Origin: an uncultured Gammaproteobacteria bacterium
GTDB taxonomy: Bacteria; Patescibacteriota; Patescibacteriia; Magasanikbacterales; UBA922
Assembly: GCA_964522405.1 (NCBI GenBank)
Contig: CAZFTR010000006.1
Coordinates: forward strand, 2,430 to 66,429
Reading direction: 5' to 3'
Length of the DNA: 64,000 nucleotides
Shown here in pieces: positions 975 through 52,200 of this stretch. Below the pieces are notes generated by a model. It worked only from the letters and a program-made list of their open reading frames with translations, was not told the DNA's origin and searched no databases. Numbering within the stretch: the stretch's first letter is position 1; each line of letters opens with the position of its first letter. Made by a program: the position numbers and the translations under genes.

Positions 975-1124
975 CAGAAAACAGTTAACAGTAGTGATTG
1001 GTGAGTGATGAATAGTGGCGGATGATAGGTAATTTCCCCTCCTTTCCAGGGAGTGGGTTAGGGGGTGGTTTCGCGCAAACAAAAAATCCAGCGCCTAGCT
1101 GGTTTTAAAATTTTCCTTTGGGCG

Positions 1125-1153
1125 GCGACAGAGATGTTCGATCTCTGTCGCCG
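1125..1153. terminator. Perfect 12-bp stem hairpin (ggcgacagagat/atctctgtcgcc) downstream of the island-1 ORF
   Basis: Seen directly; T/A-rich flanks on both strands. Confidence 0.4.
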
Positions 1154-1192
1154 CGCCAGTGTGAGTTTTGAGTGCGTTGTGTTGATGACCTT

Positions 1193-1486
1193 TCAGCCCG
1201 CCAATCCGATCAAGATCAGCAGGACCACGACGCCGACCCCGACACCGACGTAGGCCAGCAGCCGGCGACGGCGCTGACGCTCGAGTTGGATCCAGTCCAG
1301 CTCGGTCGGTGTGGGCAAGGCGCGGAAAGCGGCCTCGGCCTCGCGCGTGTCCCAGTGGACTTCGTGGGCGTTGTCGAAACGGCTGATCGCCCAACGCACG
1401 ATGCGGTAGCCAACGTAGATGGCCAACGCCAGTCCACCTGTCATTATGGTCAACACAACCAAGAAAATACAGCCACCTCTGCTCAC
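1193..1486 (-). CDS. Small membrane protein (2 predicted TM helices), GC-rich foreign ORF, GTG start
   Basis: 97 aa with hydrophobic N- and C-terminal segments; AAGGGGG Shine-Dalgarno 7 nt upstream of GTG; alternative overlapping frame 1095-1538 is less protein-like. Confidence 0.45.
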   Translation of the reverse strand: MSRGGCIFLVVLTIMTGGLALAIYVGYRIVRWAISRFDNAHEVHWDTREAEAAFRALPTPTELDWIQLERQRRRRLLAYVGVGVGVVVLLILIGLAG

Positions 1487-1786
1487 GTTTAGTCCCCCTT
1501 AACGTGTTCTTGTGGACAAAATCTAGATATTCATCCAAACTTAATCCACAAGAAAACAGTGTAGTATATCATAAAAAAAGCCTTTTGTCAAGGCAAAAAA
1601 GCCAAAATATTGCCAATTTTAGCCAAAAATGATACTATTTTAACAGTTTACTCTTTGGATTTTTTAAGAGTTACTAAATTAATTTTACAAGGTATTCGGA
1701 TTTACGGATAAATTCTGATAATTCGGATACACTTTATTTATTCGAATATCCGGATACAGCCACTAAATTACATAAAGGTTATTATT

Positions 1787-3207: not shown

Positions 3208-6200
3208 ATGCGTGGGTCCACAAGACACACAATTATGCAGATAAAAACGGCAGTCAAAAAACTACTGCCTAGTAAGCTTAAACGTTATCAAAAAATAGCG
3301 CTTTTTGCGTTCGTTTTGCTTGGATCATTATTTTTTATTTCGAGTGTTGCTCAGGCAGGACAAGGTCCGGTTACTGATCTTATCAATGGTTTAATCAGTG
3401 CTGTATCTTGGATGCTAATTGTTACTGCTCGTATTTGTATTGGTTTTACTATATTTTTCCTAAGATTTTTTATAACTTTGGCCAGCTACAATGATTATAT
3501 AAATGCCGATATTGTTAAGCTGGGTTGGATCATGGTTCGTGATGTGGCCAATATGGGATTTGTAGTGGCTATGTTGGTTATTGCTTTTGCTACAATTCTT
3601 GGAATTGAGCAATATGAATTCAAAAAAGGTCTGGTAAAAGTCATACTGGCAGCAGTATTTATCAATTTCAGTAATTTGATTGCTCAGGTTTTTATTGACG
3701 CAGCACATGTTTTTACAATTACATTTTTAAACGCAATTTCAGTTACAGCAGGTGGTAATCTGATCACCATGTTCCAGCTCGATAAGATGCTGGATTTTGC
3801 TTCGAACAAGCCTCCTGGTGAGCTTAAGTTTGAAGTTCTGGGTGGTTCTATAGTTGCCTTTGTTTTTTCATTTATGGCTATGGCAGCTATGGGAGCCTAT
3901 GTTCTCGTTATGATGCTTCGTGTAGTTTTGCTTTGGGCTCTTATAATTTTGTCACCACTTGCTTATATTTTTGCAGTTTTACCGAAGACTGAGAAATATT
4001 CTCAAGAATGGTGGAAAGAATTTGGAGAGCAGGTCATGGTGGCGCCAATCATGGTATTTTTCCTATGGTTGTCTTTTGCAGCGCTCGGAAGCGGACAAGC
4101 GCTTGAACAAATCAATTCTTCCCCAGGTGCAGTACCACTGAAGATAAAAACCACAACTGACTATTCTGTATCTTTGACCAAAATTTCAACTTGGGAAAAC
4201 ATGGCCAATTTCTTGTTGGCTATAACTTTCATGTATATTGGTATTCAAAAAGTTGGTGAATCAGGCGCTTATGGAGGAAAAATTCTGCAAAATACCATGA
4301 GTACAGCCAAGAAGATCGGAGTTATTGCAAGTGGATATGCCACAGGAAGATGGTTGGTTGGCGGCGCAGCAGATGTCGGTAAAAAAGGTGTAAAAGAAGG
4401 TCTTTATCGACTTCCTCTTGTTGGTGGAGAAAAATGGGAAAGATATGCTAAGACTTTTGGTCATGGAATAAAAGGTATGTACATGGGTAAGGGTTTTGAA
4501 ATTACAGAAAAGGGTGAGCAGATACAGGGGGATTTGCGCGAAGAACAGACATTGGCAAAAGCATTAAAGGCTGGTGGTTCAGAAGCACTGGCTGGAGATA
4601 TAGAAAGATTAGAAGCACAGCAATCGGCAGCTAATATCAATTTAGAGGGTCAAAGAACAAACTTAGAAGCACAAGAGGCCGCTGGAGATATGGTGAATGC
4701 AGAGAAGACTAGAGCAGGTATAGCAGAAACAGAACGTGAGCTCGAAACCATAGAAGGTCATCTTGCAACAAATAAGAGGGTTAAGGAAAGAATTGACCGT
4801 GAAGGTTATACAGCGGATGATGTGGATGAAATTGAGCAAAATATCCAAGATCTGCAAAAACAATTAAAAGGTCAAGTTGGTGGTCGAGGCGGAGGAAGAG
4901 TGAGTGGCCTAATAGGTGCTATGGCTCGCGCCAATATCAAATCTCAAAAACGTCTCGCTAAAACTGAAAGACAGGCAGATGAAAGAAAACAATTACTCTG
5001 GAAAAGAACCGGTTCCCAGGCTGGTGGTTATTTGGTTGGAATGGGTCGTGTCGGTGATGTATACAGAGGAAGAGAAGCACAAGATCGTGTGGAGCGTGGC
5101 TGGCTAGCAGCTGAGTCTATGCGCTCCAAGGCCAAAGATGAAGAGTATGAAACCATGGGAAAAATGGAAGTTCTGGCCAAGCCACGTCTTAAATACAATG
5201 TAAATACTGGAGAGATTACTTATGAAGATACCAAAGGAACTGTAGCAGAGAGAATAGCAGAGCATGAAGTTGGACGTGATCAGTATCAAGATGCAATTAA
5301 GAAGCTGCAAGGTGAGGCAAGATTGAAAATTGTTGCTGATTTTGATGCTAATATGTCAAAATCTAATAATATTTCAGCAGAAATAGATAAATTGAAAAAA
5401 GAATTAGAAAATGTTGATAGTCCGGAATTTGCCAATAAAATTAAAAAGAGAATTGAACAGTTGGAGCAAGAGTTATCAGGTGTGGAGAGGGGAAGTGAGG
5501 AAGGACAGAAGTTGACTGATGAAATTAAAGTTTTTAAGGGTGTTAGAGATTCATTAGCTTTTGCTCAAGCTCAAAAAAATATACAGGATTTAGAAGCTCA
5601 AACCACTGCAGACGGTTTTGACCCAAGTTCTGAGAAGGGTCAGGAAATGTTGCGTGAATTGGAGCGTCTAAGAGAAGAATTTAGTGCAGAAGGTGGAGAA
5701 CAGAAAATACAAAAATGGGAAAGTTGGAAAACAGATCTAGACGATGGAATTCTTCATGAAGAGAGAAGAAGAGAGCAGAATAGAGAGATTACTGAACAAA
5801 AAAGAGAAGAATTGAAAACAGTTACCGATGAAGATGAACGAGCTAGGATTATAAAAATGATCGAAAGAGGAGAGGAGCATGACTCCAAATCTGCTTCAAT
5901 AATTACAGATTTAAAATCTCGACGATCATTACTTGATGATCCTGATAATTTAGATTTGGTTGAAAAAGAAATTGATGCTGCTCAAAGAAGATTCACAGAT
6001 TGGGTTCCAGCTGATGCTGAAGAGGCTGAGGCGTATAGAGCAGAGAGAACTGAGAAAGAGGCAGAGTTGGCGAGGTTGAGAGAAGAATACGCTCCTTTTG
6101 CGGAGGATGATGTTAGGGCTAAAGAATTACAAGAACAAATTTCTCAAAAAGAGGCTCAGTTAAATGGTATTGATATTAATAGCGATGAAGGAAGAGCTCG

Positions 6201-9200
6201 TTTGCAAGCGCAACAAGAATTACCTGAGGATTTAAGGTTGTTGGAGTCCATGGACGGATATATGTATGGTTTGCAATATTATAGAGATTGGTCACAAGCT
6301 AGACATGACTCTCAAGATGAAGATTTAACTCAAGATGAGAGAGATCAAGCTGCTCAGAGATTTGCAGATATGGATGCTGTGTTTACTGATCACAATTCAA
6401 ATGAAAGAAAAGCTTTTAATAGAGTGGTTGGCATTCAAAATGGTTTAAGTGATGAAATCAGAGGTTATGAAGATAGAAAAAGAGAGATTGATACTGAGAT
6501 GCAAGGATTGCAAGCTATAATAGATGATCCAAATGAATCAGATGAAAACAAGGCTACTGCTGCCCAAAGCATAGGTACTTTAAATGCTGAAAAAGCAGAT
6601 ATTGATACCAATCATGCAAGAGCAGAACGTAGACATGGTATGATAGCTGATGTGTTTTCTAATGATGATTTAGATACAGCACTAAATCAAACAATCACTG
6701 AAAAGATAGGGCAACTAGATGAAGCCATTGCAAAACAATTAGTTGATTTTGGTCCTGCCGGTAGAGCTGGAACCGAAAGAGAAATAGAAGATTTGCGTGC
6801 TGAACATACTGAACGGACGGCAGCAAAAAGAACTCAAGTCCAAGCTGCTCGCCAAAGCGCCAAAGCAGCAATCAGTGCTCAGATAGATGATCAACAAGCA
6901 GCACTCAAAAAAGTACAACAAGGCGTTGTCAAGACAATGACCGGTGTAACCTATGGTTCATTCTTACAAACCAAGGCAGAAGCGCAAATAGTAAGCGAAA
7001 TTCTTGATGCAGATGAAAAGAGATTGGTAGAAGGTCAACTTCAGAAGGAATATAATCTTGGTGCTTTGGTTGATGCCGCTGCTTCTCAAGACAATCGAGG
7101 AGATTGGAGTAAGAGTGTGCAAGCGGCTCGTGAAGAAGGAAAAGTAATCGCAGCTGAGATCGATAAAAAAAGAAAAATTGAAATTGGAAATTTTGATAGG
7201 CAGCTTAGCGGTTTACAAGATAAAAGAGGAGAACTGCAGAAGCAGGCTGATACTTATGGAGCTGCTTCTAGAATTGAAAAAGCAATGACCGGGCTTGATG
7301 CCAAAGCACAAGAATTGAGAGATCAGAAAGATGCGGTTGATGCTAGCGCTGACTCTGATCAAAATAAAAAGAAAAAGAAAGATGCTCTTGATAAGCAACT
7401 GGCTGCTCTGGCACAAAACAGACAAAAAATGGCTGATGATTTGAAGAAAGCCACAAAAGATCGAGATAAGCTTGCTGGTGTGGAAAAAGGAATGTCAGAC
7501 GATGAAAAGAAGACGAAGAGAGAAGAAGGTGAGGCTGCCATTAAGACACAATTAAATACTACTGATTCAGACATATTTACTCTTTCTTCAACTATAAAAG
7601 ATAAAGAAAAAGCTTTGGAAGAAACTGATACTTACTGGGCAGAATTGATGCGCAGAAAAAAACAAAATGCAAGAAAGGTAAAAGATGAACAAACCAGCCT
7701 CGATAAAAGGGCTAATCGATTGCGTTCTGGAGACACTGGTGCTGCCAATGAGATCATTGAATCTATTGAAACAGCTCTTAGTGAAGAACAAGCTAAACCT
7801 GTCGCAGCCAGAGATGAAGCAAAAATTGACAAACTAAAAGGTGATCTTACTTCCATGCGCAAGATTAAGTCCAAGATTGGAAGGGCAGGTCTGGCTTGGC
7901 GCTATGGTGTGGCCAAAGGTAAGCAGGCTGATGCTACTCGTGGTTATAAATATGCTCATAATCTCTTGCTTTCAGAAGCAGAACAGAGGGCAATTCATGA
8001 TGAAAGAGGACTTGATACACCGAAATCAACTCTTACTGAACTGATTGAGGAATATGGAAAGAGTTTTGGTGAGATGTCAGTTGATAGTTTTGTAGCCAAT
8101 GCCGGACCTATGCTAACTAAAATGCTCAAGAAAAATAAAGCAGGTACTATGACTGAGCAAGATCGAGCAGCTCTCATGGGACTTTTTAAGCGTGGGTTTG
8201 ATCGAGCTTGGATTGATGACGCTATTTATGCCATTATGGACAATGAAGAAGCCAAAGAATTAATTGGTGATGAGTTGGGATGGACAAATTCAAAGTATTC
8301 TGATGAAAAAGTAAGAGATATTCAAATGCTTTTTGCCACTGGAGCAAATGTTGATTTTGTAAAAGACAATGCTGTGGTAACTTCAATTTCAGATGTTCTT
8401 GAAAATGATCATGGAATTAGAAATACAGAAGAAGTGATGAAGATGATGAGCACAGGTGTTTATTTGGATAAATCAGGTGTGGATGTTAGTCAACAAGTAC
8501 ATGATAAAGTTCGTGAATCAATGGCGTCTACCAATACAAAATTCAGTAGTGAACAAGAACAGAATTTTGTAAATTTCTTTAAGCATCTAGTTAAGGGAGA
8601 TGAGCAGGCATTGCTGGACGTGCAATCTCAGAGAAATAAAATTGTTGGTGGTTGGATGAAAGAAATCAGAGCCAGACAATCAGAAATGCAATATTTAGGT
8701 AATCTGCGTCCGGAAGCCATTGCCAACGGCCACTATGAAAACGCCGGTTGGGCTCTGACCCGTGAAGTTGGTGGTGGTGAATCACTCTATGTAGCTCAGG
8801 GTTTGAGAAGCGCTAGAGCTCATGTGATGGGAGATGTGAGAAAATCAGATGTGCGAACTCGTGCTAAATCTCAGACTCATTCTTGGGCTGATCTGGATGA
8901 GAGAAATGGACAAGTAGTAACCCAGATCAGAGAAGGTCAATTTACAGATACTTTCAATGGTATTGATCCTAGAACTTTTAACAGTATTAACCCGCGTGCT
9001 CGTGTGCATATGATGGGTCTTTCCGGTAGTGATAAATACTCTGATTTTCGAGATGGATCTGATGGTTCATTTACAGCAGCTCGAATGACTGATAGTACCG
9101 GCGCGCTTACCAATGCCGGAAAAACTTGGTCTCAAGAACTTTCTCAGGATAGTGTGTATGGTAGTCATTTCAAAAAAGCCAAAACTAGAGATCGCCAACA

Positions 9201-9534
9201 GGAATTGATGTCAGCCGGTATTATGAATAGGCTCTATGCTCGTGAGATTCGTGGAAATACTCATGGATTCCTCATGCTTGCTGCAGAAGCTGCCGGTATG
9301 GATCCAACCCAGGCAGCGCGTGATGGTAAAATTAATTTTAAAATGTATAATCCCGCAGAAGGAAAAGAAATAAGATATCGAGATGTAAACAGATTGATCG
9401 ATGATTTCAATAGAGGAGATTGGGAAATGGATGCCAATGGAAGATTTAGTAGAAGTTCTAAACCTTCATCTCAATTGCAACATTTCACTCCGTCAAGTGG
9501 AAAGGCAGATGAGGATTATTATCTCGATGAATAA
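3208..9534 (+). CDS. Giant membrane protein: N-terminal TrbL/VirB6-like polytopic domain fused to ~1700-aa charged coiled-coil region
   Basis: 2108 aa; signal peptide plus about 6-7 TM helices in the first ~330 aa, then long E/K/R/Q/A-rich heptad-like sequence; genomic context with PrgI-like and VirB4. Confidence 0.55.
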   Translation: MRGSTRHTIMQIKTAVKKLLPSKLKRYQKIALFAFVLLGSLFFISSVAQAGQGPVTDLINGLISAVSWMLIVTARICIGFTIFFLRFFITLASYNDYINADIVKLGWIMVRDVANMGFVVAMLVIAFATILGIEQYEFKKGLVKVILAAVFINFSNLIAQVFIDAAHVFTITFLNAISVTAGGNLITMFQLDKMLDFASNKPPGELKFEVLGGSIVAFVFSFMAMAAMGAYVLVMMLRVVLLWALIILSPLAYIFAVLPKTEKYSQEWWKEFGEQVMVAPIMVFFLWLSFAALGSGQALEQINSSPGAVPLKIKTTTDYSVSLTKISTWENMANFLLAITFMYIGIQKVGESGAYGGKILQNTMSTAKKIGVIASGYATGRWLVGGAADVGKKGVKEGLYRLPLVGGEKWERYAKTFGHGIKGMYMGKGFEITEKGEQIQGDLREEQTLAKALKAGGSEALAGDIERLEAQQSAANINLEGQRTNLEAQEAAGDMVNAEKTRAGIAETERELETIEGHLATNKRVKERIDREGYTADDVDEIEQNIQDLQKQLKGQVGGRGGGRVSGLIGAMARANIKSQKRLAKTERQADERKQLLWKRTGSQAGGYLVGMGRVGDVYRGREAQDRVERGWLAAESMRSKAKDEEYETMGKMEVLAKPRLKYNVNTGEITYEDTKGTVAERIAEHEVGRDQYQDAIKKLQGEARLKIVADFDANMSKSNNISAEIDKLKKELENVDSPEFANKIKKRIEQLEQELSGVERGSEEGQKLTDEIKVFKGVRDSLAFAQAQKNIQDLEAQTTADGFDPSSEKGQEMLRELERLREEFSAEGGEQKIQKWESWKTDLDDGILHEERRREQNREITEQKREELKTVTDEDERARIIKMIERGEEHDSKSASIITDLKSRRSLLDDPDNLDLVEKEIDAAQRRFTDWVPADAEEAEAYRAERTEKEAELARLREEYAPFAEDDVRAKELQEQISQKEAQLNGIDINSDEGRARLQAQQELPEDLRLLESMDGYMYGLQYYRDWSQARHDSQDEDLTQDERDQAAQRFADMDAVFTDHNSNERKAFNRVVGIQNGLSDEIRGYEDRKREIDTEMQGLQAIIDDPNESDENKATAAQSIGTLNAEKADIDTNHARAERRHGMIADVFSNDDLDTALNQTITEKIGQLDEAIAKQLVDFGPAGRAGTEREIEDLRAEHTERTAAKRTQVQAARQSAKAAISAQIDDQQAALKKVQQGVVKTMTGVTYGSFLQTKAEAQIVSEILDADEKRLVEGQLQKEYNLGALVDAAASQDNRGDWSKSVQAAREEGKVIAAEIDKKRKIEIGNFDRQLSGLQDKRGELQKQADTYGAASRIEKAMTGLDAKAQELRDQKDAVDASADSDQNKKKKKDALDKQLAALAQNRQKMADDLKKATKDRDKLAGVEKGMSDDEKKTKREEGEAAIKTQLNTTDSDIFTLSSTIKDKEKALEETDTYWAELMRRKKQNARKVKDEQTSLDKRANRLRSGDTGAANEIIESIETALSEEQAKPVAARDEAKIDKLKGDLTSMRKIKSKIGRAGLAWRYGVAKGKQADATRGYKYAHNLLLSEAEQRAIHDERGLDTPKSTLTELIEEYGKSFGEMSVDSFVANAGPMLTKMLKKNKAGTMTEQDRAALMGLFKRGFDRAWIDDAIYAIMDNEEAKELIGDELGWTNSKYSDEKVRDIQMLFATGANVDFVKDNAVVTSISDVLENDHGIRNTEEVMKMMSTGVYLDKSGVDVSQQVHDKVRESMASTNTKFSSEQEQNFVNFFKHLVKGDEQALLDVQSQRNKIVGGWMKEIRARQSEMQYLGNLRPEAIANGHYENAGWALTREVGGGESLYVAQGLRSARAHVMGDVRKSDVRTRAKSQTHSWADLDERNGQVVTQIREGQFTDTFNGIDPRTFNSINPRARVHMMGLSGSDKYSDFRDGSDGSFTAARMTDSTGALTNAGKTWSQELSQDSVYGSHFKKAKTRDRQQELMSAGIMNRLYAREIRGNTHGFLMLAAEAAGMDPTQAARDGKINFKMYNPAEGKEIRYRDVNRLIDDFNRGDWEMDANGRFSRSSKPSSQLQHFTPSSGKADEDYYLDE

Positions 9535-9543: not shown

Positions 9544-10737
9544 TTGGCGCTAATTAAAAATATGTTTTCATTGCCAACTATAATAATGCAACTTTATCCG
9601 GGTAAGACTGAAGAAGAGATTCAGGCTATTTCTGATGCTTGTCTTAGGGGTGGAGCAAATTATTATCACCGAACTTGGAAAGAAGTAAAAAAAGAAGATC
9701 TGGGCAAAGAAGAGGTTATTCTTAATTTGATTCGCACTATTCACACTTCTCAGCATTCATATTGGGGCGGGGTTGACGAAATTATGAGATCATTGGAAGA
9801 ATGGTCAGACGGAATAATTATTTTTGAAGGCCTAAACAAAGAACAAAATGAATTTTATCAGAGATTTTATTGTTTTATTGGATTTTTGAATTTTGCTTAT
9901 ATTGAATTTAAGAGAAAATTATTTTTGCTTGAATCTAGATTTCTTGTTTTGGCCTGTATCTGGGAAATTCCGGTCTATGTCAATGTACAACTTTATTTTT
10001 CCAGATATGCCTTTGTGGAAGGTATGAGAAATGATGCTATTCTCATGGCTGATTCTATTGAGAGAAATTGGGCGCCGGTAGGAGAAGAGGGTAGAGCGGA
10101 ATTAACTGTTGAAGAGTGGGTTAGGAAATTCAATGAAAAACCATTTACTAATTTTGGTGGTAGAATTGATGATTATTTTGTAGATAATTTGGAAGTAAAT
10201 AGATTTGATCAAGGAGTTCAAAATGTTTTGAGAAAAATCTTTACTCTTTATTGGGGGCTTAGATCCGGATCTGTCTGGAGAGAAATTTCAGAAGATTTGC
10301 ATATTGCCGGATATGAAAACAAAAAAGTGAGAGAAAATAAGACTGCAGATCAATATTACTTGCAAATGCTCCAAGAAGCTGATAAAGAAGGATTTCTTAT
10401 CTGGCTCACGAGTTATGATCATTTTGTAGATTGGGTACTTGCTGTTGGAAAAAGTGATGAGTTTATGAATCAATTATTTTATATTCTTACTCAGAAAGTT
10501 GATTTGGATGATGTTGAAGAATTAGGTTATTTTGTAGATTTGATGGAGGCTTTGCAAAAAAATGAATGGTCACTTGGTTCTGATTTGGTTTACTATGATG
10601 AGGAAACTTCAGGTTTTAGATGGAATCAAGACATAATTGAAGCTCTAAAAGAAGAGGTTGAGTATGTAAAATTATATGGAGAAAAACCAAGACCCCAAGT
10701 GTTAACTATGCCTGAGAAATTAGATATAAAAGAATAG
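9544..10737 (+). CDS. Hypothetical protein (T4SS-cluster associated)
   Basis: 397 aa ORF, coding-like composition, no recognised motif. Confidence 0.5.
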   Translation: MALIKNMFSLPTIIMQLYPGKTEEEIQAISDACLRGGANYYHRTWKEVKKEDLGKEEVILNLIRTIHTSQHSYWGGVDEIMRSLEEWSDGIIIFEGLNKEQNEFYQRFYCFIGFLNFAYIEFKRKLFLLESRFLVLACIWEIPVYVNVQLYFSRYAFVEGMRNDAILMADSIERNWAPVGEEGRAELTVEEWVRKFNEKPFTNFGGRIDDYFVDNLEVNRFDQGVQNVLRKIFTLYWGLRSGSVWREISEDLHIAGYENKKVRENKTADQYYLQMLQEADKEGFLIWLTSYDHFVDWVLAVGKSDEFMNQLFYILTQKVDLDDVEELGYFVDLMEALQKNEWSLGSDLVYYDEETSGFRWNQDIIEALKEEVEYVKLYGEKPRPQVLTMPEKLDIKE

Positions 10738-12314: not shown

Positions 12315-12749
12315 ATGCAACAATTTGTTGTTCCACAATTTATCGATGTAGAAGATAAGATTTTTGGTCCTATTACCATACGACAGTTTATTATTTTATT
12401 GTTTGGTGGACTTTTGATTTTTTTGGCCTTTAGATATGGTGATTTATCTTTGTTTATAACTACAGCAGTTATTGTAGGTGGTCTGTCTCTTACATTTGCA
12501 TTTATAAAAGTGAATGGCCAAACTTTTCATTATTTTTTGCTCAATATTACTCAAACAGCCAAAAAACCATCTCTTAGAATTTGGAATAAAAATTATACCA
12601 AAAAAGAATTAGAGTTTTATAGAAAAGAAGCATCTGATTTTGAACCTATTGAACATATTGAAACCAAAGAAGTAAAAAGAGATAGAATTAGAGATTTGGC
12701 TTTACTTGTAAATACAGGAGGTTTTTACCGTCCAGACGAATATAGCTAG
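12315..12749 (+). CDS. PrgI/VirB3-like small membrane protein
   Basis: 144 aa with two adjacent TM helices, located immediately upstream of VirB4, as in Gram-positive-type T4SS; extended -10 (TGTGATATAAT) upstream. Confidence 0.45.
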   Translation: MQQFVVPQFIDVEDKIFGPITIRQFIILLFGGLLIFLAFRYGDLSLFITTAVIVGGLSLTFAFIKVNGQTFHYFLLNITQTAKKPSLRIWNKNYTKKELEFYRKEASDFEPIEHIETKEVKRDRIRDLALLVNTGGFYRPDEYS

Positions 12750-12753
12750 ATAT

Positions 12754-13446
12754 ATGAAGAACAAAAAAAACAAAAAACAAAAAACAAAAAAACCTTCAAC
12801 TCAGGTTCATTTGCCGATTGCAGAGGTAAAAGACGGTACTGTAGTCCTAAAAGACGGAACTTTGCGAGCTGTTTTGCTTGTTTCCAGTATAAATTTTGCT
12901 CTTAAGTCTGAAGATGAACAGAATGCAGTTATATCAGCTTATGTTGGTTTTTTGAATTCTATTGATTTTCCTTTACAGATTGTTGTTCAATCCAGAAAAT
13001 TACAAATACGACCTTATCTTGAACAATTAGATGAGTTGCAGAAAAAACAAAAAGACAATCAGCTTCTAAGAATGCAGATTGCAGATTATCGTTCATTTAT
13101 CAAGGAGTTGGTTGAAATGGGTCAGATCATGACTAAGAGATATTTTGTGGTGGTTCCTTATGATCCACTTTCAAATAGAAAAAAAAGTTTTTGGAATAGA
13201 TTCAAAGAAGTTGTGAAACCGATTATAAGTATTCGTTTAAAAGAGGAGAGATTTCAAGAGAGAAGAGAGGAGCTAGATTTGAGATTAAGACATGTTAAAA
13301 ATGGTTTATCAAGTATTGGTCTCCGAGTAGAGCAGTTGGATACTCAAACATTGATTGAATTATTTTATGCAACTTACAATCCCGATGTAGGGTTTTCAGA
13401 AACATTGGGAGATGTTGAAGATATAAATATTGAGCGCATGCTCTAA
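12754..13446 (+). CDS. virB4: VirB4/TrbE N-terminal domain (separated from ATPase domain by a single in-frame TAA)
   Basis: 230 aa; motif AEVKDGTVVLKDGTLRAVLLVSSINFALKSEDEQ typical of the VirB4 N-terminal domain; same reading frame as the downstream ORF. Confidence 0.55.
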   Translation: MKNKKNKKQKTKKPSTQVHLPIAEVKDGTVVLKDGTLRAVLLVSSINFALKSEDEQNAVISAYVGFLNSIDFPLQIVVQSRKLQIRPYLEQLDELQKKQKDNQLLRMQIADYRSFIKELVEMGQIMTKRYFVVVPYDPLSNRKKSFWNRFKEVVKPIISIRLKEERFQERREELDLRLRHVKNGLSSIGLRVEQLDTQTLIELFYATYNPDVGFSETLGDVEDINIERML

Positions 13447-15336: not shown

Positions 15337-15346
15337 TTAGAAAAAT

Positions 15347-15940
15347 ATGTTAACCCTCAGACAAAGAGTTTTTGTGGCAATCAGTATTATTATGGCAGTT
15401 GTTCTTGCTATTGTTTTATTATTTCTTTATAGGAAATCACAAGTACCGACTGAAATAGAATATGATGGTGGAGATCAGCCACTTCAGGCAAGTGAAGAAG
15501 TTGTTAGTGAGACTGAGTTTGAAGTGAGCGGGGGTATATCTGTAATATCTCCAAAACAAGCTATTGAACCGGGCGCGCTTTATGCTCAAAATTTAGCGCG
15601 GGTATTTGTTGAGAGATTTGCAACTTATTCCAATCAAAATAAAAATCAACATATAGAAGATGTAAAGCCCTTAGCAACTGACAGAATGATTAGCTGGATT
15701 GATACACAGAAAATTGAGCAGAATACTAAATATAGCGGTGTTACTACTGATGTTATGAGTATTGAAATACAAGAGCAATCAGAAGAGAAAACAATTGTAA
15801 AAATAAATGCTCAGCAGGTTGTCCGTTCTCAAGTTGATGGACAAGTTGGTCTGTCAGAAGAAATTATTCAGAAAAAAGCCAGAGTTGAACTTATAAAACA
15901 AGCTGGAGAGTGGAAAGTAGATGGATTTTTTTGGGAATAG
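15347..15940 (+). CDS. Membrane-anchored hypothetical protein (single N-terminal TM; possible VirB8-like role)
   Basis: 197 aa, N-terminal TM then soluble domain; position after VirB4. Confidence 0.35.
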   Translation: MLTLRQRVFVAISIIMAVVLAIVLLFLYRKSQVPTEIEYDGGDQPLQASEEVVSETEFEVSGGISVISPKQAIEPGALYAQNLARVFVERFATYSNQNKNQHIEDVKPLATDRMISWIDTQKIEQNTKYSGVTTDVMSIEIQEQSEEKTIVKINAQQVVRSQVDGQVGLSEEIIQKKARVELIKQAGEWKVDGFFWE

Positions 15941-20348: not shown

Positions 20349-20590
20349 ACTAAAATAAAACCCCTCCGATATTCATCGGAGGGGTAGCTAGATTTTTAGG
20401 ATTATCTTCCTAACCCGTATCCAAGAAGGTGTATTCGAGGCAAAGACGAGCCTTGGCCTGTACTTCCCTGAAACACACCCCCATGCTTGTCGTGGATACA
20501 GGATTGCACTTACTTAACCTTTTAACTTGATTAACCTGTTAAATAAGCCCTGTCCTGTATACATAATCCTTGGTTTCTAGCGAACTGACA
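20348..20590 (-). ncRNA. Candidate structured ncRNA (~240 nt; identity unassigned, possibly SRP RNA-like)
   Basis: Minus-strand consensus promoter TTGACA(20614-20619)-17 nt-TATTAT(20591-20596); 5' and 3' ends pair (ctag..aggattat / ataatcct..ctag); ends in strong GC hairpin (ggggtagc side, 20352-20376) plus U-run; internal segment GUGUGUUUCAGGGAAGUACAGGCCAAGGC loosely resembles SRP RNA domain IV. Confidence 0.4.
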
Positions 20591-20752
20591 ATAATAACAT
20601 AAAATTGACTCTTTGTCAATACCTAGGATGTGGATTTGTTAAAAATTGGCTTATTTTAGCTAAACTTATGCAGGTTTTTATTATAGCAGATTTGGGATTA
20701 AAAAAACATAAAATTCCGCCTCTAGGCGGAATTTTATGTTTTTTCGAATCTT

Positions 20753-37629: not shown

Positions 37630-37679
37630 ATCTAGTTAGTAGCTGACAGTTTGTAGTTTACAGTTAACAATTTGCAGAT

Positions 37680-40902: not shown

Positions 40903-40903
40903 T

Positions 40904-47600: not shown

Positions 47601-48134
47601 AGAGATGCTTGGGTTACAGTTGGTGGGGTAATAGATAAAGTTACCAGAAAAATTACTAAAAAAGGTTCAGTAATGCTTTTTGTAACCCTGGCTGACAGGT
47701 CCGGTTCAATGGAGATGTTAGTTTTTCCAAAGAAGTTTGAAGAAACCAAAGATCTTTGGGAAGAGGGAAAAGTAGTTTGTATAGTTGGAAAAACCCCCAA
47801 AGAAGAAGGGGATAATAAAATATTTGTAGAAAATGTACATGTATTAAACCTAGAAAATGCTGAGCAGGTTAGCCGACATGTCTCGCTTGGAAGTTCAGTT
47901 GAAGCCAAAAAAGAAAAAATCAAAACCGCTCAAATTTCTATTTCAAAAGAAGAATTAAAATCTCTTACAGATGAATTAAAAGAATTATTTGAAAAATTTC
48001 CAGGGCAGTATTTATTATACCTGGATATTCTCGGACAAAAAGTAAAAACTCAGACTAAGATTGAAGCGAGTGAGGAGTTTGAAAAAGAACTTGAAGAGAT
48101 AATTGGAGAAGGCAAGTTTAGGAAGTTTGAATAG
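44613..48134 (+). CDS. dnaE: DNA polymerase III alpha subunit
   Basis: 1173 aa; N-terminal PHP domain HLHVHSHYSLL, polymerase core, OB-fold C-terminus. Confidence 0.9.
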   Translation: MIKIDKNQLLVYYTSTMSKFTHLHVHSHYSLLNGLTKIKPLVKAAKKRGFDALALTDYGSMYGAIEFYRACQAEEIKPIIGFEAFVAPRSRHDKDPEHDKEVYNLTLLAENYDGYRNLMKLSSLGHLEGFFNEKPRIDLELLEKYHDGVIVLSGSIKGQIPQFLKNNKIEEATELAKKYHDILGQDNFFLELQDHPAISGQVDVNTKLIQLSKDLNIPLVVTRDVHYLEPTDADAQDILTCIGNGWKVGQPNREDYRQVDRSLNTAQDISSRFRHVSEAIENTGKIADRVNIEIELDNWHFAPVDLPPGKTADQHLRDEAFRCVTDFYPELTDELTKRIDYELDIIKTKGYSPYFICVADYVRYAKQNGIVESTRGSAAGSLVSYVLGITTVDPMRFKLPFERFLNPFRPSPPDVDTDFADDRRDEMIQYVTKKYGSDKVAQIITFGTMAARASVRDVGRAMGFAYGFCDQVAKLIPPGAQGFPMTIERALKEEPDLKKLYDTNEDVKKLLDLAQQVEGCARHTSIHAAGVVISPTPLIDFSPVQRETGGDRITTQYEMHSVEAAGVLKNDFLGIRNLAILGNAVEIVEKTTGDKIDIYNLPLDDQDTFEKLARGETMGVFQLSGSGMTRWLKELKPNRIEDIMAMVALYRPGPMDVIPDYIYRKYHPEAVSYPDPRLENILEASYGLLVYQDDVMLTAIELAGYDWMEADKFRKAMGKKIPEEMAKQKIKFYQGCRDHGNLKKDLIDDLWKAIEPFAAYGFNKAHAASYGIVAYQTAYMKAHYPVQYMTSVLQAEAKDTEKVAAIVHECDRMGIDVLPPDVNESFRNFAMVSKQGEKGRIRFGMTTIKGLGEHISGVIYQERKKHGQYTSLENMLERIDDKDLNKRSLDALIKSGSLDCFGHDRGVLLANIENILFFVKQFREKSTNNQDSLFSGTAIAFDEKVVLKPAEEATMDEKLVWEKTLLGLYVSSHPFAPFEEKLKDKVIPLNQIEDGERDAWVTVGGVIDKVTRKITKKGSVMLFVTLADRSGSMEMLVFPKKFEETKDLWEEGKVVCIVGKTPKEEGDNKIFVENVHVLNLENAEQVSRHVSLGSSVEAKKEKIKTAQISISKEELKSLTDELKELFEKFPGQYLLYLDILGQKVKTQTKIEASEEFEKELEEIIGEGKFRKFE

Positions 48135-48136
48135 AA

Positions 48137-48308
48137 CTGTCATCTCGAGCGGAATAAGGCCGAGCAAAGCCCTGTTGCTCGCGAGCGACAGGGCGAGGCG
48201 AGAGCGAATGAAGTGGGGGAATCCCTTGGTAAATAAGTGAAGTGGGAAGTAAATCAAGGGATCTCTCGACTTCGTTTTTCTTTCAGAAAACTCCGCTCGA
48301 GATGACAA
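48137..48308. repeat. 172-bp element bounded by 17-bp terminal inverted repeats (ctgtcatctcgagcgga / tccgctcgagatgacaa) with nested internal inverted repeats
   Basis: 16/17 IR match; internal near-perfect 13-bp hairpin gccctgttgctcg/cgagcgacagggc; nested cgagag/ctctcg and atcccttg/caagggat; duplicated tgaagtggg. Confidence 0.5.
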
Positions 48309-48312
48309 TATA

Positions 48313-48350
48313 AAAAGCACCCCCTGAATTACTTCAGAGGGTGTTTGATT
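48313..48350. terminator. Bidirectional intrinsic terminator-like hairpin (accccctgaa-ttac-ttcagagggt + TTTGATTTTG)
   Basis: Seen directly. Confidence 0.4.
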
Positions 48351-48424
48351 TTGAGTGCCCGCCGTCCGTGTCGCTCGGGGCAGGCGCGGGGGCGGGGTGG
48401 GGAGGAGGGAATGGTGGTGGGGGC

Positions 48425-48877
48425 TCAGCGGTTGAGTTTGGGTTTCTCGGGGCGGATCTCGATTGTCCAGCGTGGTCCCAGCCAGGACCAGCGCTTGACC
48501 GCCAGGTAGTCGTGGCTGTCGATCCTGCGATCCTTGGACGAGTCCCTGACGTGGATGATCTTGATCACTGTGCGTCCGAATCGGTCGACCCGGACGTAGA
48601 GACGCCAGAAGGGTTCCAGTTCGGCGCTGTCTGAGGCGTTCTTGATCATCTCCGCGGCAGCTTCGATGCTGACGCTGACATTGCTGTCGGGCGCGATGAT
48701 CAGTACGCGCTCTGAGGGGTCGGTGCCGGCGGCGTAGCCGACGATCTTGGAGTCGCTGAACTCCGTGAACGTCGCCACCCCAACCTTGCGGTTGAGAAAC
48801 GCCACGATTCTTCTCAGTCTCGCCTCCAGTCTCTCTGTTGTTTCGCTTCTCTTGGGGTTATCGAACATTGACCTCAT
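48425..48877 (-). CDS. Hypothetical protein (150 aa), GC-rich foreign ORF
   Basis: Coding-like GC3-rich codon usage; GGAGGA immediately upstream of ATG; no recognised family. Confidence 0.45.
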   Translation of the reverse strand: MRSMFDNPKRSETTERLEARLRRIVAFLNRKVGVATFTEFSDSKIVGYAAGTDPSERVLIIAPDSNVSVSIEAAAEMIKNASDSAELEPFWRLYVRVDRFGRTVIKIIHVRDSSKDRRIDSHDYLAVKRWSWLGPRWTIEIRPEKPKLNR

Positions 48878-48948
48878 TCCTCCGGAATCACTAGCCGGCT
48901 CATGCCGGGCAAACTGATATTGCGGCTATATTACCGCTTGCTTGGATT

Positions 48949-49215
48949 TTAGTCAAATGCTACATCCCCATTTTCTTTTGCTTTTTTGTCTTCATATGGA
49001 GCAATCTGGCGACGGTAGAATTCCAGCTTGGCTGATTCAAGTGCACCGATAAGTTCATTGTAGTCTGCGTATCTTCCTTCTCCGCGTAGTTTTAGAAGAA
49101 GTTTGGTAATTGTATAATTTATTTCTCCTGCTCTTTGGTCTGTATTTATGATTTCCGCGAGGGCATTAATTTTTGGATCTAGGCGATCTCGGTCTTCTTG
49201 TAGAATGTAGGGCAT
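48949..49215 (-). CDS. Hypothetical protein (88 aa)
   Basis: AT-rich native-like ORF. Confidence 0.4.
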   Translation of the reverse strand: MPYILQEDRDRLDPKINALAEIINTDQRAGEINYTITKLLLKLRGEGRYADYNELIGALESAKLEFYRRQIAPYEDKKAKENGDVAFD

Positions 49216-49310
49216 AGAATTTTAGTTAATAGTTAACAGTTTACAGCTGATAGTTAATAGTTGTTTTTTTGTTTACTACTAACTGTAAACTGTCAGCTGT
49301 AAACTAAAAA
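49216..49310. repeat. Intergenic imperfect palindrome built from GTTAACAG/GTTTACAG/CAGCTG words
   Basis: ttaacagtttacagctgatagtt ... ctgtcagctgtaaactaa inverted arrangement; related word sets recur at 961-1030 and 37630-37680. Confidence 0.45.
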
Positions 49311-50507
49311 TTACAATTTAGTTAAATCTGTTTTTATTCTATTAAGCAATAGTGGTGCAATAAAAGTTGAAAGCGCCATTAATACTAATAATAAATATAA
49401 ACCTGACGAATCAAAAGTTGTTATAAAAAGCAAAGGAACAAAACTAAGTGATCGACCGGTCAGGTTTACTGTTTCTCGTATAACCAGATATTCAACTCGG
49501 TGGGTGATATGATCTTTGAGTCCATGGAGTAGATTTTGATAATAAACTCTTCCGACTAGAGTTATGGTTGGTTCCAGCATTTCTTTTATTGAACCATAAA
49601 TAATATAAATCACAAAGCCTGGCCAAGCAATAAGTGAAAGAGTTGCAGCTGATAATAATCCTCCTGAAAACAAAGCTAATTTTTTATAATATTTATAGTG
49701 AAAATATTTTCCAATAATTAAGGTAGTAATAATAGACCAAAATGTGAAAAAAGAAATCCAGCTTCCAACTTTGAATTCGCTGGCTAAAATTGTTAACAGA
49801 AAAATAGGAATTATTTTTCGTATTGCTCCTATCTGTCCAAAATTAATAAAGAAATAGTTTACTGTTGCCAATTTGAGGTCTGTTTTCTTTTTTACGATTT
49901 TGAGAGTTTCAAAAAGATGAAATTTATTTTTTGTGTGAACATGAGTTTGTATATTACCCAGCAAAAGACAGGCAAAAATACCCGCAAGTCCAAGCAAGAA
50001 AATGTTTCCATAACCAAAACCAAAAGCATTGATACTGATTAGAAAACCACCCAGAGCCGGGGCAAGTAGATTTGCTACAGTAGTTAGTGATCTGTCTAGT
50101 CCTGCATAATTACCACGATTTTTGGTGTGAGTTAGATCAAAACTTAAGACATGATAGCTAAGCCAGTACATGGCATTGAAAATTCCATATCCAACAGCAA
50201 CAGGTATAATATGATTGGCAACATTGTCGCCAACAATAAACATTAGAAACAAGTAAAGCCCCATTCCCAGTGTTCCTATATTTTTGATCGATCTCACATA
50301 GCCTTTTTTGGCTAAGGGAGCGAAAAGCCAGAAGAATATAGTATGGGAAATATAAAAAGCAATTTCAAAGATGGCAATCTGGGAAAGATCATTGGTAAGA
50401 TTCCAAATATAAAGACTTATAAAAAGCCTAAAAAGAGTTCTGGTGAATACCCAGAAAGTGTGCGAAACCAGGAGTTGCTTGAGAACAGGAAGAGAAATAT
50501 TATTCAT
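49311..50507 (-). CDS. MFS-type transporter
   Basis: 398 aa, 12 predicted TM helices in two 6-TM halves. Confidence 0.65.
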   Translation of the reverse strand: MNNISLPVLKQLLVSHTFWVFTRTLFRLFISLYIWNLTNDLSQIAIFEIAFYISHTIFFWLFAPLAKKGYVRSIKNIGTLGMGLYLFLMFIVGDNVANHIIPVAVGYGIFNAMYWLSYHVLSFDLTHTKNRGNYAGLDRSLTTVANLLAPALGGFLISINAFGFGYGNIFLLGLAGIFACLLLGNIQTHVHTKNKFHLFETLKIVKKKTDLKLATVNYFFINFGQIGAIRKIIPIFLLTILASEFKVGSWISFFTFWSIITTLIIGKYFHYKYYKKLALFSGGLLSAATLSLIAWPGFVIYIIYGSIKEMLEPTITLVGRVYYQNLLHGLKDHITHRVEYLVIRETVNLTGRSLSFVPLLFITTFDSSGLYLLLVLMALSTFIAPLLLNRIKTDLTKL

Positions 50508-51552
50508 AAACCTTCCAGTTTGGATTTGCTTTTACCGCTTTCCAGTCATTAAATTCTTTTTTTGAGGCTTTGAAATATGCAGCGGCTCCGATCATGGCAG
50601 CATTGTCCATGCAATATTTAGGCTCAGGGTAGAGAACTGGAATATCTAGAGCTGACTTTAGAGTTTTTCTAAGTTTTTTGTTTGCAGAAACTCCACCAGC
50701 GACAATTATAGTTTTTGGTTGATATTTTTTTGCGGCTCTAAAGGTTTTTTTTACCAAGACATCAACTATCGCTTGTTCAAAACTGGCACAGAAATCATCT
50801 ATAGTGATTTGGTTCTGATTAGATTGTCCAAACCAAGTTGAAATTTTTCCAAGAGGGTTAGTTCTAAGAGTTGCCAATTTATTATCTCGCAACCAATAGA
50901 GCGCAGAGGTTTTAAGACCGGAAAAACTAAAATCAAAATTCTTTTTATCCAGCATGGGGCGCGGAAATGGAATTGCGTTAGCATTTCCATTTTCAGCATG
51001 TTTAGAAATTTTTGGTCCACCCGGATAATCCAATCCCAGAAGTTTGGCAACCTTATCAAAAGCTTCACCAGCAGCATCGTCTGTAGTTTTTCCAATTAGT
51101 TCGTATTGGCCATGATTTTTCATCAAGATTAGTTCTGTGTGCCCACCACTAACTATAAGTGCAATAGCTGGAAATTCAATTTTTTGATTATCGAGAAGAA
51201 CCGAGTGGATATGTCCTTCGATATGATTTATAGAGATAAAAGGAATATCCCAGAGATAGCTCAGAGCTTTTGCAGCTTCTGTTCCAACCAATAGTCCAGT
51301 GATAAGCCCTGGGCCAGTTGTGGCTGCGATAATATCGGGTTTTTCCTGGTTTTTCATTACTTCTTCAATCACCGGCATGATGTTTTCTGCGTGGGCTCTT
51401 CCAGCTACTTCCGGAACTACACCGCCATATTTTTGGTGAATGTCAATTTGACTAGCGGTTTTTTCTGAGATAATTTCAAAAATGCCTTGGTCAATTTTGA
51501 GCAGAGCAACAGATGTGTCGTCACATGAGCTTTCAATGGCTAAGATTTTCAT
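50500..51552 (-). CDS. tsaD: tRNA N6-adenosine threonylcarbamoyltransferase
   Basis: 350 aa; MKILAIESSCDDTSVAL N-terminus, metal-binding HxxGH (HIEGH), Kae1/TsaD family. Confidence 0.9.
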   Translation of the reverse strand: MKILAIESSCDDTSVALLKIDQGIFEIISEKTASQIDIHQKYGGVVPEVAGRAHAENIMPVIEEVMKNQEKPDIIAATTGPGLITGLLVGTEAAKALSYLWDIPFISINHIEGHIHSVLLDNQKIEFPAIALIVSGGHTELILMKNHGQYELIGKTTDDAAGEAFDKVAKLLGLDYPGGPKISKHAENGNANAIPFPRPMLDKKNFDFSFSGLKTSALYWLRDNKLATLRTNPLGKISTWFGQSNQNQITIDDFCASFEQAIVDVLVKKTFRAAKKYQPKTIIVAGGVSANKKLRKTLKSALDIPVLYPEPKYCMDNAAMIGAAAYFKASKKEFNDWKAVKANPNWKVYE

Positions 51553-51640
51553 ATTTTTATTCTACAAAACAATTCTAACAGAAAGAGGGGTTTTTTTCTA
51601 GAGTAAATAAAAAACTACCTTAAATAAGATAGTCTTCTGG

Positions 51641-52200
51641 GCGTCCTCCTTTTGACGCCTCCTTGGTTTTGGGTAAAAGAGCCTGGGATTGGATGTTCAC
51701 CAGAACGGCGAGCAATTGCGGCAGGGCACCGCGGTGGTGGGTTAGTCGTTGTCGAACTCTCCGTCGATGGGTTCGTGCGGGTAGGCGCCTCCCTCCAAGA
51801 GCTCTTTCTTCAGGGTGAGGAGGGTCTGCTCGCCGAGCTCGCCGTCGGCGATGAGGTCGGTGTCCTCCAGTCCCTCGGAGAGGATGAGCATGATCAGGTA
51901 GGCCTGGATCTGCTTGAGCGTCGGCATCCCGTCGGGCAGACTGACCTCGTCGTCGTACATGCGCTGCACGGTGGCGCGGTCGATCTGGCCGGTGACCTCG
52001 AGGCCGTCCGTGGCCTCCTGGTACTGGCGCAGCGCCAGCTCGGTCTGCTCACCGAGCTCGCCGTCGGCGATGAGGTTCTCGGTGTTGTGTCCCGCGACGA
52101 TCAGGAAGGCCTGAACGCCTTTGATTCTTTTGTTGCTGAGCTCGATAGTCATGGTCCGTGCAATCTCCGTAGTTGTTCCGTCCGATTCTGAATCGAACTT
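51641..52200. other. High-GC island 5 (compositionally foreign segment)
   Basis: ~62% GC block between tsaD and the tRNA region. Confidence 0.6.
51742..52152 (-). CDS. Protein with two tandem peptidoglycan-binding (PG_binding_1-like) repeats, GC-rich foreign ORF
   Basis: 136 aa; repeated IADGELGEQTELALRQYQ / IADGELGEQTLLTLKKEL motifs matching the DG-FG--T--AV--FQ PG-binding consensus. Confidence 0.5.
   Translation of the reverse strand: MTIELSNKRIKGVQAFLIVAGHNTENLIADGELGEQTELALRQYQEATDGLEVTGQIDRATVQRMYDDEVSLPDGMPTLKQIQAYLIMLILSEGLEDTDLIADGELGEQTLLTLKKELLEGGAYPHEPIDGEFDND

Follow-up and report, generated by a model that had tools for sequence, protein, structure and literature searches.

The stretch of DNA considered here, referred to as the window, comprises 64 kb of contig CAZFTR010000006.1 and carries five short GC-rich islands with genes of their own, set into AT-rich DNA. 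Its GC content was analyzed by a 400-bp sliding profile and a two-state GC segmentation (hidden Markov model), both of which returned exactly five high-GC segments, summing to 4156 bp or 6.5% of the window (Table 1). Outside the islands the GC content is 35.6%, and 400-bp background windows have a standard deviation of 3.4% and a maximum of 45.5%. A first-pass annotation had described five blocks of about 60 to 65% GC in a background of about 36%; the blocks are confirmed at 58 to 64%, with edges that agree within tens of bases. Its statement that they lie between native genes also stands, and the flanks are housekeeping genes. Island 1 is located between RecO and a class II aminoacyl-tRNA synthetase, island 2 between a DHH-family gene and SMC, island 3 between SMC and LysA, island 4 between DnaE and DUF6899, and island 5 between TsaD and tRNA-Glu/L10.

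Native genes have a median GC content at third codon positions (GC3) of 0.26 with a robust standard deviation of 0.04, as against 0.73 to 0.90 for the island reading frames, which were picked by codon-position GC and Shine-Dalgarno (SD) sites. The coding strand is the minus strand in islands 1, 2, 4, and 5. The first-pass annotation correctly saw that the island open reading frames (ORFs) combine high GC3 with SD sites and hairpins, and that the long antisense ORFs are spurious; these, like the out-of-frame ORFs, have the wrong codon-position GC pattern. Its view of the cargo as envelope and membrane proteins plus an aspartokinase is broadly right, as the islands encode likely membrane proteins, a peptidoglycan (PG)-binding protein, and an aspartate kinase (AK).

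Table 1. Window positions of the islands, their genes and associated signals, and of independently assembled contigs covering the junctions (rhoCG, CpG component of the dinucleotide signature)
Feature	Position	Strand	Details
Island 1, GC block	1036-1442		Segmentation; 61% GC, rhoCG 1.14
Island 1 gene	1193-1486	-	97 aa, GTG start; GC1/2/3 0.64/0.46/0.79; SD AAGGGGGA upstream
Island 1 promoter-like site	1563-1591	-	TTGACA-17-TATACT, extended -10 TG; 11/12 consensus, best of region
Island 1 downstream hairpins	1088-1169	-	Inverted repeat 1107-1169; stem 1088-1102, then T-run
Island 2, GC block	22483-22803		Segmentation; 60% GC, rhoCG 0.91
Island 2 gene	22495-22818	-	107 aa; GC3 0.82; SD GGGAGGG
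Island 2 promoter-like site	22867-22895	-	TTGACA-17-TATAAT, 12/12
Island 2 downstream hairpin	22459-22488	-	GTGGAC...GTCCAC, read off the sequence
AK operon leader, AT-rich, native	26247-26395	+	-35-like TTGACA 26247-26252, leader ORF, terminator
Island 3, GC block	26418-28595		Segmentation; two genes; 58% GC
Island 3 AK gene	26489-28069	+	526 aa from TTG 26489 (SD AGGGAG), or 545 aa from GTG 26432
Island 3b gene	28259-28537	+	92 aa; GC3 0.73; SD GGAGG
Native lysA	28628-29854	+	TIGR01048 361 bits, above cut-off; GC3 0.26
Native dapF	29778-30638	+	DAP_epimerase E = 2.6e-56; GC3 0.22
Island 4, GC block	48144-48910		Segmentation; 58% GC
Island 4a non-coding element	48138-48307	+	About 170 nt; perfect 16-bp closing stem (16-nt perfect inverted repeat)
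Bidirectional intrinsic terminator	48318-48343	-	Between dnaE plus structured element and the island 4 gene; 11-bp stem, then T-run
Island 4 gene, ORFan	48425-48868	-	147 aa; GC3 0.80; SD GGAGG
Island 4 promoter-like site	48928-48956	-	TTGACT-17-TAATAT; weak, 9/12
Island 5, GC block	51637-52119		Segmentation; 64% GC
Island 5 gene	51742-52152	-	136 aa, tandem PG_binding_1-like repeats; PF01471 E = 1.6e-10; GC3 0.90
Island 5 promoter-like site	52213-52240	-	TTGACA-16-TATAAT, 12/12
Island 5 downstream hairpin	51639-51660		GGCGTC...GACGCC
Contig L140 (SRR8146440)	1-1655		Island 1 and both junctions; 100% identical
Contig L141 (SRR8146440)	20473-24599		Island 2 and both junctions; 100% identical
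Contig L002 (SRR8146441)	26720-30046		Island 3 right junction into lysA; 100% identical
Contig L003 (SRR8146440)	26420-28646		Island 3 right junction into lysA; 100% identical
Contig L080 (SRR8146441)	48761-50612		Island 4 right junction; 100% identical
Contig L081 (SRR31802803)	48605-49526		Island 4 right junction; 100% identical
Contig L001 (SRR31802803)	51530-52812		Island 5 and both junctions; 100% identical

Promoter motifs stand just outside the GC blocks of islands 1, 2, 4, and 5, and a hairpin lies behind each gene. Perfect TTGACA/TATAAT-type promoters occur three times in the 64 kb compared with 0.06 expected, two of them at island genes and one at the S16 ribosomal protein gene. Judged by these motif matches, which reach consensus level, the island genes would be expressed from a promoter of their own and end at a terminator of their own.

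The island 1 protein has two hydrophobic segments that appear membrane-spanning by eye, and the hydrophobic island 2 protein has, also by eye, several likely membrane segments; neither belongs to a family in Pfam, PHROG, or PADLOC. In the PHROG and PADLOC scans of the island proteins, only the generic PG-binding domain of island 5 was matched, with weak PHROG hits to the PG-binding region of endolysins, and phage-structural or defense roles, which were considered for these proteins, found no support there. The island 5 gene contains an internal 35-nt repeat (97% identical). Single-sequence AlphaFold2 models of the island 3b (pLDDT 40) and island 4 (pLDDT 43) proteins were unusable.

Island 4 is a composite of a structured non-coding element, a bidirectional terminator, and then the ORF. 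The element (island 4a, about 50% GC, rhoCG 1.06) sits just past the dnaE stop codon, and the region 48130-48345, which includes the adjacent terminator hairpin, has a minimum free energy of -102.8 kcal/mol (z = -9.5). Island 4a has no Rfam match, is unique within the window, and is absent from all fetched relative loci. It could be a small RNA, a 3' untranslated region (UTR) element, or the relic of a mobile element.

The first-pass annotation had also raised the possibilities of assembly chimerism and of artificial insertion. A chimera, in which the assembler had wrongly joined GC-rich pieces from a different organism to a contig of a candidate phyla radiation (CPR) bacterium, would agree with the sharp composition breaks and with contig L003, which happens to begin at the left edge of island 3 (26420). 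An artificial insertion would agree with the cassette-like appearance of consensus promoter, SD, ORF, and terminator. The window was therefore compared with Logan unitig assemblies of the public runs SRR8146440, SRR8146441, and SRR31802803, in which junction contigs were located via neighboring genes and other island proteins. Eight of the ten island-flank junctions were recovered at 100% identity in contigs from the three runs, all five islands have junction-spanning contigs, and islands 4 and 5 have such contigs from a second accession series as well. No independent assembly recovered the left junction of island 3 (26396-26420) or that of island 4 (48134-48144). The DNA to the left of island 3 is, however, a leader conserved in a related locus, where it also precedes an AK gene, and the same architecture is found in relatives from other projects. 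Exact-protein look-ups gave no record for AK (545 aa), the island 4 protein (150/147 aa), the island 2 and island 1 proteins, or dnaE; window proteins are also present on an NCBI contig of 67,119 bp, and this contig and the public read assemblies hold sequences identical to those of the window. Since the Logan assembler is of a different, conservative unitig type and the runs come from at least two accession series, both artefacts are rejected: a chimera or contamination is very improbable, and a spiked sequence hardly conceivable. By this comparison of assemblies, the five blocks are genuine chromosomal DNA of a Magasanikbacteria-related CPR bacterium.

Signs of foreign origin that do not depend on GC content were sought in the dinucleotide signature (rhoCG per segment and the Karlin distance delta*). 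Native DNA is CpG-depleted, with a rhoCG of 0.53 (450-bp chunks have a standard deviation of 0.20 and a 99th percentile of 1.04) and a value of 0.33 in smc, and all seven island sub-segments have a rhoCG of 0.91 to 1.14. The delta* between islands and native DNA is 193, compared with a null maximum of 157 among native 2-kb chunks. Relatives of similar GC content show no CpG depletion (rhoCG 0.77 to 1.07), and the depletion would therefore be a recent trait of this lineage which the islands have never experienced. Their escape from it points to a recent arrival of the islands. The native CpG depletion itself is a lineage-specific mutational or methylation-related trait. Avoidance of palindromes and restriction sites was also considered, and the native genome shows no strong avoidance.

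Translation signals differ in the same way. An SD sequence lies upstream of all six island genes compared with 3 of 47 native genes (4-nt core; Fisher P = 3.7e-6, GC-matched null P = 3e-4), GGAGG is present at three of the six island sites, and the contrast between GC-rich and native genes recurs in relatives. Native starts are often found a few bases past a TATAAT-like box, as in lysA at 28628. The near-absence of native SD sequences and the position of these starts suggest that leaderless or SD-independent initiation is widespread in the native genome.

Codon-position GC was reportedly used by Lawrence and Ochman in 1997 to read the amelioration of transferred genes. The GC1, GC2, and GC3 values of AK (0.63, 0.40, and 0.75) are mutually consistent with a genome of about 60% GC, and AK would therefore not have ameliorated.

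The closest species representatives for TsaD are Candidatus Magasanikbacteria metagenome-assembled genomes (MAGs), at 64 to 65% identity, and DnaE is 70 to 72% identical. Relative loci compared with the window cover islands 3, 4, and 5. In one Magasanikbacteria MAG (L004), tsaD and dnaE are convergent and nearly abutting, leaving the island 4 site empty, and in another MAG with 47% GC (L005) there is no island 5 between tRNA-Glu and tsaD. The tsaD-dnaE gap of the latter holds a different cassette of 63% GC, encoding a phosphoribosyl pyrophosphate (PRPP) synthetase (NCBIfam 352 bits, GC3 0.82), with an SD GGAGGA, a TTGACA-17-TACTAT promoter motif, and a terminator. As far as these loci tell, islands 4 and 5 would be lineage-specific gains and the tsaD-dnaE gap a recurrent landing site in the clade.

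A further relative locus, L128, contains two GC-rich, SD-bearing ORFans of 183 and 287 aa (12645-13196 and 14586-15449; 53 to 56% GC vs a background of 40%). Neither matches Pfam, PHROG, or PADLOC or resembles the island proteins of the window, and the conserved genes around them are SD-less and AT-rich. The GC-rich, SD-bearing class is thus also present in L128, which makes the two-class genome a property of the clade. Locus L082 comes from the same organism as L128 (99.99% identical).

Island 3 differs from the others in that the native lysA and dapF genes follow it immediately, outside the GC block. The AK contains an AA_kinase domain (PF00696, E = 9e-27), followed by ACT_9 (E = 9e-10) and ACT_7 (E = 8e-6) domains in Pfam, and the motifs KFGGSS, SRGGSD, and WTDVPGV were seen in its alignment to a homologue. 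The best NCBIfam match is NF006540 (PRK09034), with 333.8 bits vs a cut-off of 434, and TIGR00657 gives 163.7 vs 208.7. From its domains and motifs, the island 3 kinase is evidently a highly divergent aspartate kinase that scores below the curated equivalogs.

About 70 to 170 nt upstream of the AK start, AT-rich DNA contains the elements of a regulatory leader. A leader ORF of 20 codons (26285-26347, MNHQCIIKTAKKTKKISLAG) includes five Lys and two Thr codons, and downstream of it lies a terminator (26371-26389, followed by a T-run to 26395; -12 kcal/mol). At the end of the leader ORF, the strand GCGGG (26339-26343) pairs with CCCGC of the 5' arm of the terminator, which gives an antiterminator of -14 kcal/mol. 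The mRNA is apparently leaderless, with no SD and an ATG about 10 nt past a weak -10. The AK in L128 is likewise preceded (8755-8925) by TTGACA, an ORF (MNMYQSFLLTTKKTKKTTLTERDCLMHR), an internal GCGGG, and a terminator, and this leader can adopt the same alternative fold. The motif KKTKK is common to both leaders, a comparison of two sequences (lysA 69% identical) with no covariation. A search of Rfam with the AK leader gave no family match, only a sub-threshold Trp_leader match to the terminator part. The most fitting reading of this leader is a candidate transcription attenuator with a Lys/Thr leader peptide.

As the leader design is conserved in L128, these lineages inherited the arrangement of leader, AK, and lysA from a common ancestor. 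Against this background, the window AK, GC-rich and accompanied by a small ORF, has the appearance of a xenolog that took the place of the resident gene in situ. The AK of L128 is 33% identical to that of the window and consists of the kinase domain only (296 aa), with GC1, GC2, and GC3 of 0.61, 0.45, and 0.46. This pattern is probably that of a former GC-rich gene undergoing amelioration, with a lagging GC3.

A seemingly closer relative of the AK (P0002, 346 bits) owed its score to a duplicated assembly stretch; its true identity is 39% and its context has 47% GC. A transcript-templated origin of the islands (retro-conversion or similar to a diversity-generating retroelement) was considered and rejected, as it does not agree with the AT-rich transcribed leader of AK, which is not GC-enriched, nor with the lack of a consistent sense-strand A depletion and the identity of the islands between runs.

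In a search of 5.8 billion proteins, the best non-self matches of AK were 36 to 41% identical, and those with names belong to Bacillota/Clostridia and one to Burkholderiales, with none from Actinobacteria. The donor or donor pool of the islands would by these searches be absent from public sequence data and not recognizably actinobacterial.

Island 5 lies about 300 bp from tRNA-Glu (52515-52587, minus strand). Between the two, 18 nt of the tRNA-Glu 3' end recur exactly (52343-52360; original 52515-52532), at a distance of 172 bp from the original. In L005, the 5' half of tRNA-Glu is duplicated (9783-9805 and 9877-9899), followed by a short GC-rich insert. The partial tRNA copies in the window and L005 are possible scars of integration events.

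We favor, with a probability of roughly 60%, the explanation that the islands are genuine foreign cassettes from one source which entered permissive sites and, in the case of island 3, displaced a resident gene in situ. They would have moved recently and horizontally into this genome from a single source that is rich in GC, uses SD sites, and has normal CpG. Each would be an expression cassette complete in itself, with a sigma-70-type promoter, a GC-rich 5' UTR with an SD, one ORF (or two, in island 3), and a terminator hairpin. Insertion would have occurred at harmless intergenic gaps, such as the convergent tsaD-dnaE hot spot and the site beside tRNA-Glu, probably by illegitimate or homology-facilitated recombination following DNA uptake. 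The GC-rich AK and the small ORF would have displaced the resident AK between the native attenuator and lysA-dapF, and the foreign AK would thereby be wired into the native control of the lysine/diaminopimelate (DAP) pathway. The horizontal transfer put forward in the first-pass annotation thus finds general support in base composition (GC and GC3), in the dinucleotide signature and SD usage, and in the absence of islands 4 and 5 from the orthologous sites of relatives. Its notion of five independent acquisitions is doubtful, as the islands share one signature and island 3 sits in an ancestral operon slot.

Several observations weigh against foreign cassettes from a single source. Island 3 is not absent from the orthologous site, as an AK occupies the same position in L128 and in another relative locus, L118, where lysA is 65% identical to that of the window. 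In L118, a GC-rich AK (GC3 0.75) is followed by an AT-rich spacer, a GC-rich small ORF, and an AT-rich lysA, and the island 3b protein matches this small ORF (34% identity, E = 2e-7). The L118 AK is the nearest to the window AK in the comparison set (136 bits vs at most 99 for the others), and yet only 38% identical. Had AK been acquired once in the distant past, it should by now have ameliorated, and to invoke two separate displacements at the slot, by donors that are related yet very divergent and unsampled, is unparsimonious; the GC-rich AK in both L118 and the window is left unexplained by simple horizontal gene transfer (HGT) and amelioration.

No donor was identified either, the AK being at most 41% identical to anything in the sequences searched. 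The island 4 protein found only itself in a word search of 5.8e9 proteins and in an exhaustive HMMER search of 1.84e9 representatives, and the island 5 protein had no match beyond itself in the protein database search. The proteins of islands 1, 2, and 3b were scanned against viral contigs and family libraries, and the viral-contig scans found no relative of these or of the island 5 protein. The database holds Logan assemblies of the same runs, and an abundant co-resident donor should therefore have been seen. None of the islands is flanked by an integrase, a transposase, a target-site duplication, or a terminal inverted repeat. The comparison of AK with the four other islands pooled points to a single source, the two being as alike as pieces of one genome (delta* 60, compared with 72±29 for same-genome and 128±46 for different-genome controls), but with about 2 kb per side it is only suggestive. 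Relative synonymous codon usage did not discriminate (AK vs other islands, r = 0.76; controls did not separate same-genome from different-genome pairs).

Other origins have to be weighed against this record. Saccharibacteria live episymbiotically on Actinobacteria, and recent gene uptake by an episymbiotic CPR cell from its high-GC actinobacterial host, the donor that the first-pass annotation proposed, would be compatible with the high GC3 and SD-led genes. This donor did not hold up and is improbable: the named matches of AK are in Bacillota/Clostridia, the AK belongs to the PRK09034 type, and for the island 4 and 5 proteins no homologue was found, in Actinobacteria or elsewhere. The recipient is Magasanikbacteria-like, and nothing was found on its partners, as a literature search gave passing mentions of the group only. 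A different kind of partner, namely a persistent pool (a co-diversifying host, plasmid, or virus) from which GC-rich genes are re-imported or allelically refreshed at the same loci, would let each CPR lineage keep an unameliorated, lineage-specific GC-rich allele at a conserved position. Such a pool could account for the GC-rich AK and small ORF in two lineages with lysA only 65% identical, for the ameliorating, truncated AK copy in the third lineage (L128), for the GC-rich, SD-bearing gene class in at least four related genomes, for the one signature shared by the five window islands, and for the use of the tsaD-dnaE gap in two lineages with different cargo. It is nonetheless unlikely, because no partner copy of the searched island genes is found in databases that include same-run Logan assemblies, viral relatives were not found, and there is no identified route for same-site replacement. 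Furthermore, the distance between the window and L118 AKs (38% identity) is as great as that to Bacillota AKs (about 40%), so that the partner lineage would have to be very deep and unsampled.

The islands could also be resident, fast-evolving genes whose GC content was raised or maintained in situ, gene by gene. Recombination hot spots with GC-biased gene conversion could have brought this about, as could selection for GC-rich mRNA or coding sequence, and SD sites would have evolved secondarily because GC-rich leaders are structured. Such an origin fits the positional conservation and extreme protein divergence of AK, the missing donor and homologues, and the persistently high GC3 across several lineages. 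It also fits the restriction of GC richness to the ORFs and their immediate structured flanks, since promoters, the leader, and the spacer between AK and island 3b are AT-rich. No bacterial mechanism of such strength is known, however, and GC drive alone would not yield a coherent, different signature that lacks CpG depletion. The GC1, GC2, and GC3 of AK match a genome of about 60% GC with GC3 not ahead, and islands 4 and 5 are simply missing at the orthologous sites of relatives. Island sequences are identical in SRR8146441 and SRR31802803, which speaks against ongoing hypermutation, and the S16 gene, with an equally strong promoter, is not GC-rich. We therefore consider an origin in situ quite unlikely. 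It is tentatively possible that the clade keeps a GC-rich, CpG-normal, SD-translated, fast-diverging gene class at conserved slots across speciation. An example would be AK and the small ORF, which precede lysA in at least two deeply diverged lineages. The class could be maintained by re-import from an unsampled co-diversifying partner or by an undescribed, gene-confined GC-biased process. If true, passive amelioration does not apply to these genes.

Foreign cassettes remain our preferred reading, and they resemble known HGT islets in their sharp contrast in GC, GC3, and dinucleotides, their patchy presence in relatives, their intergenic and near-tRNA insertion, and the GC3 of the L128 AK, which shifted first. 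Unlike such islets, they are tiny single-gene units, five in 64 kb, without mobility genes, repeats, or an identifiable donor, and one of them keeps its position in two divergent lineages and yet has not ameliorated in either.

Phage "morons" were reportedly described by Juhala et al. and by Hendrix et al. in 2000. The islands share with them an own promoter and terminator, one ORF between resident genes, and an odd nucleotide composition. Morons, however, are defined within phages or prophages, and the islands are flanked by recO, smc, dnaE, tsaD, and rplJ; there are no phage genes among the flanks and no phage-family matches beyond the generic PG-binding domain. Integron cassettes are also single-ORF units, often ORFans, with a structured 3' end. 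They were rejected as a model, as the islands have no attC-like common site, no integrase among the annotated neighbors, and no array, and are dispersed with their own promoters. Likewise, no repeat family or common end motif links the islands, and their 3' hairpins differ from one another in sequence and in architecture.

In situ xenologous gene displacement in mosaic operons is said to have been described by Omelchenko et al. in 2003. Island 3 resembles it in that operon organization and regulation are kept while one member is swapped for a distant, compositionally different homologue. It differs in that the displacing AK has no close relative, is accompanied by a small ORF, and has a different GC-rich version in a second lineage. 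Attenuators of the thrL/hisL/trpL type consist of a short ORF rich in the regulatory amino acid, an intrinsic terminator, and a competing antiterminator whose 5' strand lies at the end of the ORF. The window leader shares the ORF, the terminator, and the competing stem. It departs from them as a Lys/Thr leader with KKTKK ahead of an aspartokinase, apparently leaderless, and with two sequences known.

HGT is common in Patescibacteria, with hundreds of genomic islands and transferred genes in 125 aquifer genomes (PMC12455944). These make up as much as 13% of genome length and add metabolic functions, and the transfers are mostly between Patescibacteria, with recognizable partners (PMC12455944). 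For the selected terms considered in that paper, no description of GC-rich, SD-bearing single-gene cassettes or of operon-internal displacement was found. What appears to be new is the occurrence of many very small cassettes of one gene each, whose GC content exceeds the background by 25 points and whose translation signals are foreign to an otherwise SD-less genome. Their recurrence at the same loci in relatives also appears new, as does a displacement within an attenuator-controlled operon for which a diverged lineage has an unameliorated counterpart.

CPR bacteria are thought to rely on partners and DNA uptake, and for most lineages, including Magasanikbacteria, the partners are unknown. 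Unameliorated cassettes with one signature would be the fingerprint of a DNA supplier, which can be searched for by its GC, CpG, codon, and SD profile. The AK in the lysA-dapF operon and the PRPP synthetase of a relative suggest that reduced CPR genomes patch central metabolism with single imports. At the same time, a GC-rich AK at the same operon slot of a deeply diverged relative challenges the picture in which genes are acquired and then ameliorate.

A few other features of the window deserve mention. Upstream of the AK leader lie a promoter with 11 of 12 consensus positions (26007-26034) and, behind it, a short hairpin with a T-run (about 26082-26112). A tRNA-like sequence (26167-26236) ends in ...GGAGTTCGATTCTCCCTCCGTCCACCA and has a weak tRNA-Sec match (21.6 bits, E = 0.08), but was not called by ARAGORN; Rfam gave nothing credible for tRNA-like sequences. 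The sequence 26007-26240 may be an unannotated small RNA or tRNA-like gene. Intergenic clusters of a AGTTAACAGT-like motif occur at 969-992, 37655-37671, and 49224-49291, with 10 matches at no more than one mismatch vs 4.0±2.1 expected, and two of the clusters adjoin islands 1 and 4. The motif may serve as a binding site for a regulator or be a repeat associated with terminators.

Upstream of rplJ, an L10 leader-like element (52784-52937) scores 41.9 bits vs a Rfam gathering score of 44 (E = 2.7e-5) and is probably a genuine, divergent CPR version. A very large ORF of 2108 aa (3208-9534) has a local GC content of up to 45%, above background.

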